Assembly: GCF_048403405.1 (NCBI RefSeq)
Contig: NZ_CP183129.1
Length of the DNA: 64,000 nt
DNA from: Escherichia coli
GTDB lineage: Bacteria > Pseudomonadota > Gammaproteobacteria > Enterobacterales > Enterobacteriaceae
Reading direction: 5' to 3' (one strand)
In this document: positions 9-61,795 of the stretch, piece by piece
Layout of the letters: each line of letters begins with the position of its first letter
Numbering within the stretch: the stretch's first letter is position 1
Translations under genes and position numbers: made by a program
Notes under the pieces: model-generated
Told to the model about the DNA's origin: nothing
The model's database searches: none
Seen by the model: only the letters and a program-made list of their open reading frames with translations

Positions 9-833
9 TTATCGCATTATGCCCATGAAGCCATGTACGCCCATATACACACCAACTAAGCCAATCAACAGACTGGAAAAATAGGGGGCGCGTTTAGCGA
101 GAGTGTTAAATCCGCTCCAGCGTTTTGCGACCTGCTGAACGCTGATTGCTGCGCCAACGCCTACGGTGACAAGCGTTAACGCCAGGCCAATGCTGAAACT
201 GACGACCAGTGTTGCGCCCAGTGTCAGGGCTTTCAACTGAATGCATATCAACAGCACGGTAATTGCTGCCGGGCAGGGGATAAGGCCACCGGTTAAGCCA
301 AATAGCAAAATTTGCCAGTTGGTGACCTCTCTACCATCAAAGCGTCGTTTAATGTCATTGGCATGGGCTCGTGCATGGGCATCCTGATACTCGCCATGTT
401 CGTGATGGTGATGATGTCCATGGTCGTGGTGATCTTCGTGATCGTGGTGATGATGCTCATGATCATGCTCGTGCATATTCTCCAGCCAGTTTCGTTCGCC
501 GCGCCAGGTACGCCAGAACATCCAGAACGCGGTGCCAATAATGATCACTGCGGAAATCAACTGGAGCCACGGTTCTGCTGATTGAGCAGTAAAGCGCTTG
601 CTGATCACCATCCCGCCAAAGGCAATCAACCAGACCACTGCGGTATGCGAAATGGTTGCTGCCAGTCCGAGCATCACCGCCTGTTTAATGGTGCCTTTGA
701 TGGCGATGATAAACGCCGCCATCATCGTTTTTGAGTGCCCTGGTTCCAGGCCATGAAGCGCACCAAGTAAGATGGCGCTGGGGATGAAGAACCAGGCGTT
801 TCCTTGCTGAAGAAGAGTTGTAAATTCGGTCAT
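9..833 (-). CDS. rcnA: Ni/Co efflux permease RcnA, 274 aa, with a His-rich cytoplasmic loop
   Basis: ORF track 9..833 (-); sequence recognised as E. coli RcnA including the HEHDHEHHHHDHEDHHDHGHHHHHEH tract; divergent from rcnR. Confidence 0.9.
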   Translation of the reverse strand: MTEFTTLLQQGNAWFFIPSAILLGALHGLEPGHSKTMMAAFIIAIKGTIKQAVMLGLAATISHTAVVWLIAFGGMVISKRFTAQSAEPWLQLISAVIIIGTAFWMFWRTWRGERNWLENMHEHDHEHHHHDHEDHHDHGHHHHHEHGEYQDAHARAHANDIKRRFDGREVTNWQILLFGLTGGLIPCPAAITVLLICIQLKALTLGATLVVSFSIGLALTLVTVGVGAAISVQQVAKRWSGFNTLAKRAPYFSSLLIGLVGVYMGVHGFMGIMR

Positions 834-870
834 GATAATAATTCTTAGTATTAATTCGGCAATCTGATTC

Positions 871-905
871 TACTCCCCCCCAGTACCTGATACTACCCCC
901 CAGTA
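871..905. promoter_or_regulatory. Two RcnR operator-like sites, TACT-C7-AGTA (871..885) and TACT-A-C6-AGTA (891..905), in the rcnA-rcnR divergent promoter region
   Basis: Motifs read directly in the intergenic sequence; RcnR is known to bind TACT-G6-N-AGTA type sites. Confidence 0.6.
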
Positions 906-953
906 GATTAATAGTGCTATGATTTTTCATATTCTTATTAACCAGGTGTTGCC

Positions 954-1226
954 ATGTCTCATACCATCCGTGATAAACAGAAACTGAAAGCGCGTGCCAG
1001 TAAGATTCAGGGCCAGGTCGTGGCGCTCAAGAAAATGCTCGACGAGCCGCACGAATGCGCTGCAGTTTTACAACAGATTGCTGCTATCCGTGGCGCGGTA
1101 AACGGTCTGATGCGGGAAGTGATTAAAGGTCATCTGACGGAACACATCGTTCACCAGGGGGATGAGCTAAAACGTGAAGAAGATCTGGATGTCGTTCTGA
1201 AGGTGCTGGATTCTTATATCAAATAA
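954..1226 (+). CDS. rcnR: Ni/Co-responsive transcriptional repressor RcnR, 90 aa
   Basis: ORF track 954..1226 (+); CsoR/RcnR-family sequence; divergent from rcnA. Confidence 0.9.
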
Positions 1227-1317: not shown

Positions 1318-1448
1318 TCAAACGACTCGGGGTGCCCTTCTGCGTGAAGGCTGAGAAATACCCGTATCACCTGATCTGGATAATGCCAGCGTAGGGAAGT
1401 CACGGACCACCAGGTCATTGCTTCTTCACGTTATGGCAGGAGCAAACT
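1318..1448 (+). promoter_or_regulatory. TPP (thi-box) riboswitch in the thiM leader
   Basis: Sequence ...CGACUCGGGGUGCCCUUCUGCGUGAAGGCUGAGAAAUACCCGUAUCACCUGAUCUGGAUAAUGCCAGCGUAGGGAAGUC... matches the E. coli thiM TPP aptamer as recalled; it ends at the thiM SD and ATG (1449). Confidence 0.85.
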
Positions 1449-16695: not shown

Positions 16696-17109
16696 GATCG
16701 TATGTGCCTTTATGATTGGTCTGTAGATAGTGTAGAGCAGAAAAGAAAAGGTGGAGTCAGAACAGGATGAAAGTCGGAGGATAAAAAATCAGTTCAAGTA
16801 TGGAGGATTCGGTGGTTACCACCAGGAGCTTGCAATGGGGACAGTGAATGTTAACGGTAGCCATAGGTAAATTTCAAAAAAGAGCATATACCTAATATTC
16901 AACTAAACAGTGGCATCTTCAATATACTATTAAAAATATATTAACCCCCCCATGGGGTTACCCGGAAGGGCCTCCGTGTATGTAATTCCTACTTATGTAG
17001 GAAATGTTGTACAGAACATTTATTATAATCCTATTCAATTATAATAATCATGCCATTATTATATTTAAACACCAGAGCGTGTCGTTGGTATTTAATGGGG
17101 GAAGGTGAG

Positions 17110-17584: not shown

Positions 17585-17611
17585 AAAAAATAAGCCCGTG
17601 TAAGGGAGATT
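17585..17611. other. Phage P2 attB core-like sequence (aaaaaataagcccgtgtaagggagatt) at the cyaR 3' end, unoccupied
   Basis: 27-mer read from sequence; matches the P2 attachment core as I recall it; no prophage genes flank it here. Confidence 0.5.
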
Positions 17612-17671
17612 ACACAGGCTAAGGAGGTGGTTCCTGGTACAGCTAGCATTTTATGGGTTATGTTTTTCAGC
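17585..17671 (-). ncRNA. cyaR: CyaR (RyeE) Hfq-dependent sRNA
   Basis: Reverse complement reads GCUGAAAAACAUAACCCAUAAAAUGCUAGCUGUACCAGGAACCACCUCCUUAGCCUGUGUAAUCUCCCUUACACGGGCUUAUUUUUU, matching E. coli CyaR as recalled. Confidence 0.85.
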
Positions 17672-17755
17672 GAAACGGATGATAACCTTAATAAATGCAG
17701 CTGTATGTGATCGGTTTCTAAGAATTTTCCATCCGGGAAAAATAATCGAAATTAA

Positions 17756-30989: not shown

Positions 30990-31128
30990 AACGGGAAAGC
31001 CCCTCCCGAGGAAGGGGCCTTAAATAAGGAAAGGGTCATGATGAAGCTACTCATCATCGTGGTGCTCTTAGTGATTAGCTACCCAGCATACTAAGACTAC
31101 CAGGGCGGGGGAAACCCCGCTCTACCCT
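30990..31128 (-). ncRNA. Sib-family antisense sRNA (type I antitoxin), copy 1; ends approximate
   Basis: Minus-strand promoter-like TTGACA-17-TACTTT near 31135..31165 and hairpin gcccct/aggggc plus U-rich tail near 30995..31018; fully overlaps ibs copy 1. Confidence 0.5.
31038..31094 (+). CDS. Ibs-family type I toxin peptide, copy 1 (MMKLLIIVVLLVISYPAY)
   Basis: 18-codon ORF with SD aaggaaagggtc upstream; Ibs-like hydrophobic peptide. Confidence 0.75.
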   Translation: MMKLLIIVVLLVISYPAY

Positions 31129-31317
31129 CACTCCTGAAAGTATGCCTTCACGATAAGATTGTCAATCTGCAGGCTTTGCAGTCTGCGATCCTGCCAGCAA
31201 ATATTCTTTGCGAGACGTTACGCAATAATCACACTGGAAACTATTTTATCCGCAAGTCAGCGATAGACTGCATACAGGGCGAAAGGAGGTAAGCCGACGA
31301 TTTCAGCGGGACGCTGA

Positions 31318-31456
31318 AACGGGAAAGCCCCTCCCGAGGAAGGGGCCTTAAATAAGGAAAGGGTCATGATGAAGATACTCATCATCGTGGTGCTCTTAGT
31401 GATTAGCTACCCAGCATACTAAGACTACCAGGGCGGGGGAAACCCCGCTCTACCCT
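31318..31456 (-). ncRNA. Sib-family antisense sRNA, copy 2; ends approximate
   Basis: Same elements at equivalent positions in repeat unit 2. Confidence 0.5.
31366..31422 (+). CDS. Ibs-family type I toxin peptide, copy 2 (MMKILIIVVLLVISYPAY)
   Basis: Same position within repeat unit 2. Confidence 0.75.
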   Translation: MMKILIIVVLLVISYPAY

Positions 31457-31646
31457 CACTCCTGAAAGTATGCCTTCACGATAAGATTGTCAATCCGCAG
31501 GCTTTGCAGTCTGCGATCCTGCCAGCAAATATTCTTTGCGAGTCGTTACGCAATAATCACAGAGGAAACTATTTTGGTCACGCGTTAGCGATAGACTGCA
31601 TTCAGGGCGAAAGGAGGTAAGCCGACGATTTCAGCGGGACGCTGAA

Positions 31647-31790
31647 ACGGGAAACCCTCTCCCGGAGAAGAGGGCTTTTAATAAGGAAAGGGTTATGATG
31701 AAGCACGTCATCATACTGGAGATACTCTTAGTGATTAGCTTCCAGGCTTACTAAGAACACCAGGGGGAGGGAGAAACCTCTCCCTAACCC
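31647..31790 (-). ncRNA. Sib-family antisense sRNA, copy 3; ends approximate
   Basis: Equivalent position in unit 3; minus-strand TTGACA-17-TAATTT promoter-like element near 31800..31830. Confidence 0.45.
31695..31754 (+). CDS. Ibs-family type I toxin peptide, copy 3 (MMKHVIILEILLVISFQAY), IbsA-like but with an internal Glu
   Basis: 19-codon ORF in repeat unit 3; GAG codon read directly from sequence. Confidence 0.7.
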   Translation: MMKHVIILEILLVISFQAY

Positions 31791-31974
31791 TCACTCCTGA
31801 AATTATGTCACTCCGCCCTTAGTGTCAATCGACGGCTCTCCGTTCTTGCGAGGCGAATAGCAAAATTTTCTGCGCCGCCGGGCCTAATTCTGAAAGTTTC
31901 TTCGTTTGCTCTTATTTCATTATTGCAATCGGTATGATACCGGGCCTCAATAATTCTCTAAGAAAGGATTTCTT

Positions 31975-46876: not shown

Positions 46877-47344
46877 AGTAAGTACAAAACCTATTCGTTG
46901 TATGACAAATGTCACAATTCGATCATGGATAAATCGGGGCAAAAATGCAATGTTGCAGCACTATTTATCTCATATTATTTGAGGGTAATAACCTCACATT
47001 ACCCCTGAATTAAAAGTGGTAATAATAAAACATTATTTAAGAAATATCGCATGTGGAGACACTATATTAAATATTGTCAACCTAAAGAAACTCCTAAAAA
47101 CCATATTGAATGACACTTAATATAATTCTTAAAAATAGCCAATTGCCGAATTGTTACCTTGCCTGCTATTCCGTTAGCTGTAACACTTCCTCCTGCATTA
47201 TTGGAGAGCCAATATTCAATTACCATAATGTCACCTTATATTCGGAAGTTAATTTCCGCAATAACCCTTTCTCATCAACGACTGTATGTTGAGAGGGTTT
47301 TAAAAATTAAGCTAAATCAGTGTATTGGTAGCTAAAAAGCCAGG

Positions 47345-47356
47345 GGCGGTAGCGTG
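47345..47356 (+). promoter_or_regulatory. ops element (GGCGGTAGCGTG) within a JUMPStart-like leader upstream of wza
   Basis: Exact ops 12-mer read from sequence about 180 bp upstream of the wza ATG; RfaH-dependent antitermination site in polysaccharide operons. Confidence 0.7.
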
Positions 47357-61695: not shown

Positions 61696-61795
61696 CCGTT
61701 GAATAATCAACCGGATTAATTCTCCGGTAAATAACGAAAAAACAAAATTGGCCGTTTCGGTCAGGGCCAACTATTGCCTGAAAAAGGGTAACGAC

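Follow-up and report, generated by a model that had tools for sequence, protein, structure and literature searches.

Tandem RcnR operator between rcnA and rcnR of Escherichia coli: conservation of the two sites across species and length polymorphism of their C tracts

Operators of the CsoR/RcnR family assigned to type 1 are defined by a single continuous G/C tract of 3–8 bp and by AT-rich inverted repeats positioned 6–9 bp apart (PMC3902906). The operator of the rcnA-rcnR region has been described as a pair of tandem type 1 sites, with a 1:1 stoichiometry per site and minor-groove contacts, in which the uninterrupted G tract is A-form-like and is read by its shape, and where RcnR also contacts the flanking DNA non-specifically, leading to wrapping (PMC3902906). 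Each site is bound by one RcnR tetramer, and both sites are occupied on the same DNA face (PMC5146963). The published recognition motif, TACT-G6-N-AGTA, is present in two copies between rcnA and rcnR (Iwig and Chivers 2009; Blaha et al. 2011; both as cited in PMC7055735, PMC3902906 and PMC5146963). The primary operator work, by Iwig and Chivers (J Mol Biol 393:514), is taken here through the papers citing it, and the footprint boundaries and mapped transcription starts are likewise drawn from secondary citations only. The title of Blaha et al. (Biochimie 93:434) presents RcnR as the repressor of rcnA as well as of its own gene, acting through a shared operator. Binding of apo-RcnR and its release by Ni(II) or Co(II) are known from the literature (PMC7055735, PMC3902906, PMC7105576, PMC5709419), and the metal-bound Salmonella RcnR was reported to bind the rcnA operator-promoter at least 90-fold more weakly than apo-RcnR (PMC5709419). 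Moved to a foreign promoter, the RcnR operator brought about RcnR- and Co-dependent repression (PMC7105576).

Related sites have been described for other members of the family. In the frmRAB promoter (Pfrm) of E. coli, sites of the DUF156-family regulator FrmR share with those of RcnR one unbroken G/C tract, AT-rich inverted repeats and a tandem position in the regulated promoter (PMC3902906, PMC5146963). However, FrmR sites have ATAC/GTAT half-sites, 9-bp GC-rich tracts and two tetramers modelled a quarter turn offset, whereas RcnR sites have TACT/AGTA half-sites, a 7-bp spacer and binding on the same face (PMC5146963). Type 2 CsoR operators, found, e.g., in Streptomyces lividans and Bacillus subtilis, are similar in their GTA/TAC dyads and in A-DNA-like G tracts read by shape; on the other hand, they hold two short interrupted G/C tracts, their repeats are about 11 bp apart and each site takes two tetramers, in contrast to the RcnR site with one tract, 7 bp and one tetramer (PMC3902906).

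The window analysed here is a stretch of E. coli DNA of 64 kb, which carries at its left end a divergent pair of open reading frames separated by a gap of 120 bp. The features of this locus, with positions counted from the first nucleotide of the window, are as follows:

9–833, minus strand: rcnA, Ni/Co efflux pump gene (274-aa ORF; NCBIfam NF007454; annotated by RefSeq under the match)
834–953, no strand: divergent rcnA-rcnR control region (120 bp; 37.5% G+C compared to 52% in the window; in 5363 of 5426 complete E. coli genomes)
842–846, minus strand: likely ribosome-binding stretch of rcnA, AAGAA (8–12 nt before the ATG; TTCT at 842–845 conserved 0.8–0.9)
867–872, minus strand: candidate rcnA -10 hexamer, TAGAAT (2-bp overlap with TACT of site 1; bases 867–870 conserved 0.7–0.9 in 79 sequences)
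871–885, no strand: RcnR operator site 1, TACT-C7-AGTA (TACTCCCCCCCAGTA; C7 at 875–881; minus strand reads TACT-G6-G-AGTA)
891–905, no strand: RcnR operator site 2, TACT-A-C6-AGTA (TACTACCCCCCAGTA; C6 at 896–901; minus strand reads TACT-G6-T-AGTA)
915–923, plus strand: candidate rcnR extended -10, TGcTATGAT (10 bp downstream of site 2; TGnTAnnnT conserved 0.9, neighbouring bases 0.2–0.5)
954–1226, plus strand: rcnR, gene of the Ni(II)/Co(II)-responsive CsoR/RcnR-family repressor (90-aa ORF; NCBIfam NF011613)

The identity of both genes follows from curated NCBIfam equivalog and subfamily models and from RefSeq annotation. The rcnA product matched the nickel/cobalt efflux transporter model NF007454 with 560 bits (cutoff 195), and the rcnR product matched the RcnR equivalog model NF011613 with 197 bits (cutoff 138). 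The presence of the control region in complete E. coli genomes was established with a 231-nt query spanning the gap, and RefSeq annotates rcnA and rcnR at this place. Among 40 sampled matches, the top-ranked was strain 7/2, with 100% identity to the query. The RcnR protein was WP_000019944.1 in every E. coli record inspected, except for the MG1655 record, where it was NP_416608.1. The repressed target, rcnA, is transcribed leftward, out of the shared control region. Its length was 858 nt in O157:H7 SS TX 313-1 and 825 nt elsewhere; the difference presumably lies in the histidine-rich HEHDHEHHHH... loop (about 370–480 of the window), a second repeat-like variable stretch of the locus.

The initial annotation had placed two TACT-(C6-7)-AGTA motifs, 20 bp apart, in the gap between the two genes. 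Both C-tract motifs are indeed there, but the second is TACT-A-C6-AGTA and not TACT-C6-AGTA, and 20 bp is correct as the start-to-start distance, the actual gap between the sites being the 5-bp sequence CCTGA (886–890). Read on the minus strand, site 1 (TACTGGGGGGGAGTA, 871–885) and site 2 (TACTGGGGGGTAGTA, 891–905) both correspond to the published TACT-G6-N-AGTA with 0 mismatches, and both copies lie inside the divergent rcnA-rcnR intergenic region. The type 1 definition is matched as well, by the C7 and C6 tracts and by the TACT/AGTA inverted repeats, which are 7 bp apart at both sites. The assignment to the RcnR operator type made in the initial annotation is thereby supported. Likewise, the proposal made there that one shared region serves for the control of both rcnR itself and rcnA is what the title of Blaha et al. 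(2011) claims, and the published RcnR sites, as reported in secondary citations, do not map elsewhere in the intergenic region.

The compared stretch of the window (820–970) differs from K-12 MG1655, the strain of the RcnR literature, in two places only: 937, which is A instead of G, and a synonymous position near the start of rcnR. Positions 834–936 are identical, including both sites, the 5-bp spacer, the flanks and thus the 35-bp operator core, so the element is the same as the published operator and not merely similar to it. Compared to the K-12 rcnA-rcnR operator of Blaha et al. (2011), the locus and the flanking genes are the same and the operator shows no difference. Position 937, which lies downstream of the candidate rcnR -10 and ahead of the rcnR start, is G in K-12 and in six other aligned E. 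coli. The two C-tract palindromes are therefore almost certainly the tandem operator bound by RcnR, the Ni(II)/Co(II) sensor of E. coli, and nothing in the data of this analysis contradicts such an explanation. The operator sequence is the one used in previous studies (PMC7055735, PMC3902906, PMC7105576, PMC5709419). The operator is already known, is textbook-level in metal homeostasis and has been used in synthetic cobalt-inducible circuits, and finding it again adds nothing. The only new material is descriptive and consists of the depth of the tandem-site conservation and of a low-frequency, partly lineage-fixed polymorphism in tract length.

Within the window, the motif is well distinguished from the background. 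TACT-N7-AGTA occurs in 64 kb only at these two places, with 0.19 occurrences expected from shuffled sequences and two or more found in 1 of 100 shuffles. The search for TACTGGGGGGNAGTA with up to 2 mismatches also returned only these two sites, each a perfect match, where 0.16 hits were expected. The entire window has only six C/G runs of at least 6 nt, two of which belong to these sites. Since sites 1 and 2 form a short direct repeat of 15 nt with 93% identity, they could come from a local duplication, and it might be supposed that the pair arose by chance and has no function. Apart from the expected number of matches given above, such an origin is refuted by the conservation pattern, as the sites are near-perfectly conserved in Enterobacterales and in a Vibrio while the 5-bp spacer drifts, and its probability is practically negligible. 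A hairpin or RNA element was also considered and dropped, because the single-strand fold of the operator region was not notable (z = -1.2), which indicates that the region acts as duplex DNA.

The conservation was inspected in a scan of RcnR relatives with one genome per species, which gave 80 loci, mostly from Enterobacterales, including Escherichia, Citrobacter, Salmonella, Raoultella, Kosakonia, Rahnella, Hafnia, Erwinia, Edwardsiella, Morganella and other genera, together with Vibrio europaeus. Both TACT-N-AGTA sites were found upstream of rcnR in 69 of the 80 loci, and a single site was present in 9 more. Among the 69 two-site species representatives, the spacer of site 1 was C7 in 65 and that of site 2 was ACCCCCC in 59, with a start-to-start spacing of 20 bp in 66. 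When 79 upstream regions were aligned, per-base conservation was at least 0.9 in site 1 and 0.8–0.9 in site 2, whereas the first four bases of the inter-site spacer were conserved only 0–0.4, and solely the A at 890, beside site 2, reached 0.9. The motif thus accompanies rcnR across species in the form of a phylogenetic footprint, with conserved cores and a drifting spacer. The tandem site, the tract lengths and the 20-bp register are kept from Escherichia to Morganella and a Vibrio, which supports the published model of shape readout and same-face binding. A lone C7 site was found in Morganella, Edwardsiella anguillarum, Erwinia psidii and one Enterobacter; the first three of these single-site lineages indicate that the family does not always need two sites in tandem.

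Two individual genomes presented disrupted structures. In Escherichia whittamii Sa2BVA5, the 5′ coding sequence of rcnA abuts the rcnR ATG directly; a deletion appears to have removed the entire region between the genes, both operators included, as well as the first rcnA codons. In E. coli 097H6, a deletion of 5 nt (CTACT, 870–874 of the window) takes away the left half-site of site 1, leaving C7 and AGTA intact.

The promoter elements listed above are candidates recognized by their sequence and conservation. A conserved ATTC lies directly left of site 1 and, when extended by the TA that opens TACT, reads as TAGAAT on the rcnA strand; in diverged species a TAnnnT hexamer is kept at this position, e.g., TAAAAT, TATGAT and TAGGAT. 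A consensus scan had proposed another rcnA promoter, TTGCCG/TATTAT at 862–835, which was rejected since its -10 would be just 2 bp from the ATG, and the conserved TAGAAT (872–867) was preferred. The extended -10 pattern proposed for rcnR is also found in other genera, e.g., ATGCTATAAT and ATGGTATAAT.

Such an arrangement suggests how the two genes could be controlled. Each 15-bp site, in which the AT-rich inverted repeats TACT and AGTA enclose an uninterrupted G/C tract, is a type 1 CsoR/RcnR operator in the published scheme and, according to the literature, accepts one apo-RcnR tetramer; the 20-bp spacing corresponds to about two helical turns and fits binding on the same face. As the sites are situated between divergent promoters, bound RcnR would shut off rcnA (the rcnAB efflux genes) and dampen the expression of its own gene. 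On the rcnA side, site 1 overlaps the probable -10 and site 2 would cover the position of a -35, so the rcnA promoter could be fully occluded. On the rcnR side, site 2 would be placed just upstream of an extended -10 that needs no -35, which fits a milder autoregulation. The binding of Ni(II) or Co(II) lowers the affinity of RcnR for DNA, at least 90-fold for the Salmonella protein, and would release both promoters.

It could also be supposed that the palindromes are mainly there for a regulator other than RcnR (Fur, the paralogue FrmR or a nucleoid protein, for example) or belong to the promoter architecture, and that RcnR binding is incidental. A Fur-box-like cluster indeed adjoins at 828–852, where 14 of 19 positions match on both strands, and the title of a 2007 paper ties RcnRA to iron homeostasis; moreover, FrmR uses related type 1 sites with the structure ATAC-GC-rich tract-GTAT (PMC5146963). 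However, the Fur-like matches do not overlap with 871–905, the FrmR half-sites ATAC/GTAT and 9-bp tracts are unlike TACT-N7-AGTA (PMC5146963), the motif travels with rcnR across genera, and the transplanted operator confers RcnR- and Co-dependent control (PMC7105576). This proposal is largely refuted by the literature and we regard it as extremely improbable. The Fur-box-like cluster itself, with 14/19 matches to GATAATGATAATCATTATC on both strands and two further matches at 13/19, spans the rcnA start codon and 5′ leader, and only 11 Fur-box-like sites with at least 14/19 are present in 64 kb; the link between RcnRA and iron homeostasis is made in the 2007 title.

The initial annotation also pointed to the C tracts as potentially slippage-prone, and this is borne out by complete E. 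coli genomes, in which length variants occur well above an assembly-error control. At site 1, C6 was found in 118 and C8 in 98 of 5135 genomes (216 in total; 4.2%). At site 2, C5 was present in 36 records, 17 of them otherwise identical, and C7 in 32, altogether in about 68 of 5363 (1.3%). The matched control was the C6 tract of ftsI, an essential gene in which any indel would represent an assembly error; C5 was found there in 7 and C7 in 1–2 of 5421 genomes (0.15%). The excess over this control, which gauges assembly error only and not the neutral rate of slippage, corresponds to odds ratios of 7.7 at site 2 (p = 9e-13) and 26 at site 1 (p = 3e-56). Within 100 kb of MG1655, no C7/G7 tract in core genes was available as a control. 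The only other C7 of the window (16945–16951) showed 0 C6/C8 variants, in a locus present in just 617–1256 genomes and with an unmatched genome sample. This run (16941–16960) is situated in an AT-rich, intergenic and variable region, inside a small inverted repeat AACCCC...GGGGTT, and is found in about 600–1250 of 5426 genomes.

Technical aspects of the search also shape these counts. The BLAST low-complexity filter appears to mask C7, leaving about 5135 instead of 5363 searchable genomes for site 1 and for the counts of the 61-nt operator sequence. Masking, rather than biology, probably explains why the search for C5 at site 2 seeded just 36 records and why a 62-nt query gave no match for C7 at site 2, which was then counted with a longer right flank. 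Tract-variant counts are lower bounds, as a variant combined with any SNP in the flank was not scored as exact. The exact 61-nt operator (856–916) was present in 4397 genomes. Other differences included C6T at site 1 in ten genomes and G866T, outside the core, in all three sampled records with one substitution, the latter being probably the commonest other difference of the operator region.

Comparison of haplotypes defined by 1.46 kb of flanking sequence helps to separate inherited variants from errors. Two O121 isolates, from the USA and Canada, were identical and both had C8, and O111 RM9322 (USA) and E2863 (Japan) were identical and both had C6. Each of the two lengths was also found on at least two further, well-separated haplotypes, that is, on at least three distinct ones in all, which means that the variants arise repeatedly. 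Hence, at least a part of the variation is genuine, has arisen repeatedly and is passed on by descent. Assembly errors probably account for some of it, and a single batch of assemblies contributes many of the variants (accessions CP027xxx, strain names of the 2013C-2015C series). The sibling genomes WF5-5-T1 and WF5-5-T2 differ by one C, having C6 and C7, respectively. In two of six inspected genomes with a C8 operator, PSJ-29 and AMSHJX01, rcnA was flagged as a pseudogene, by a frameshift in PSJ-29 and an internal stop in the other; these could be poor assemblies or could reflect a real link between the operator change and the loss of the pump. A literature search combining rcnA/rcnR with homopolymer, slippage, phase variation or experimental evolution returned nothing relevant, and the polymorphism, modest as it is, is apparently unreported.

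Homopolymers in promoters or operators that vary in length among isolates are also known from promoter phase-variation loci, such as nspA and nadA of Neisseria and sabA of Helicobacter. Related to this, the C tracts could be proposed to form a contingency locus, in which slipped-strand mispairing would move TACT and AGTA closer together or further apart, loosen the binding of RcnR and turn Ni/Co efflux up or down in a heritable manner, with mutability itself being selected. The enrichment of length variants over the ftsI control at both sites, showing polymorphism beyond the level of error, the occurrence of C8 and C6 on at least three 1.46-kb haplotypes each, and the difference between the siblings WF5-5-T1 and WF5-5-T2 would agree with such a switch. 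However, typical phase-variable G/C tracts are longer than 6–7, and in comparison with the Neisseria and Helicobacter loci the RcnR tracts are short, with a modal length fixed across genera. A single length is maintained at each site, C7 and A-C6 being modal in at least about 95% of E. coli and in 65/69 and 59/69 species representatives, respectively. The exact C7 in about 95% of E. coli and its near-invariance across genera point to purifying selection for a fixed length, which argues against a contingency switch. Furthermore, the ftsI control addresses assembly error only, the other C7 of the window had no variants in its 617–1256 genomes, some of the variants are probably assembly errors (the CP027xxx batch; PSJ-29 with its frameshifted rcnA), and the literature search found no paper on tract variation. 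We consider a selected switch to be highly improbable.

A weaker proposal is that the operator tracts are a recurrent and heritable source of regulatory variation, where a single base gained or lost would leave TACT and AGTA 6 or 8 bp apart instead of 7, make RcnR bind the affected site less tightly and thereby reset the basal Ni/Co efflux. The near-invariant C7 across genera suggests that off-length variants would likely bind RcnR less well. We put this forward as tentative and rather unlikely. If it were true, variant lineages would be natural partial-derepression mutants, e.g., those with C6 in O111 str. RM9322/bovine E2863 and with C8 in O121:H19. A few percent of E. coli, including two STEC-associated haplotypes (O121; O111 str. 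RM9322 and E2863), carry such one-base changes, and they could be used as natural experiments on spacer length, RcnR binding and nickel/cobalt tolerance.

Several other non-coding elements were observed in the window. A TPP riboswitch (1318–1414, plus strand; Rfam RF00059, 71.8 bits) lies upstream of thiM-thiD and is annotated by RefSeq in other strains as well. Three tandem Sib antitoxin RNA genes on the minus strand (31023–31165, 31351–31493 and 31680–31828; RF00113, 141–146 bits each) are positioned beside the mdtA end of the mdt/bae cluster. K-12 has two Sib genes at the mdt/bae locus, sibA and sibB, and the strain of the window may carry an extra copy compared to it. The remaining elements are the CyaR sRNA (17588–17673, minus strand), a JUMPstart element (47318–47356, plus strand) ahead of an apparent colanic-acid (wza) cluster, and an 'algC RNA' motif (61742–61791, plus strand).
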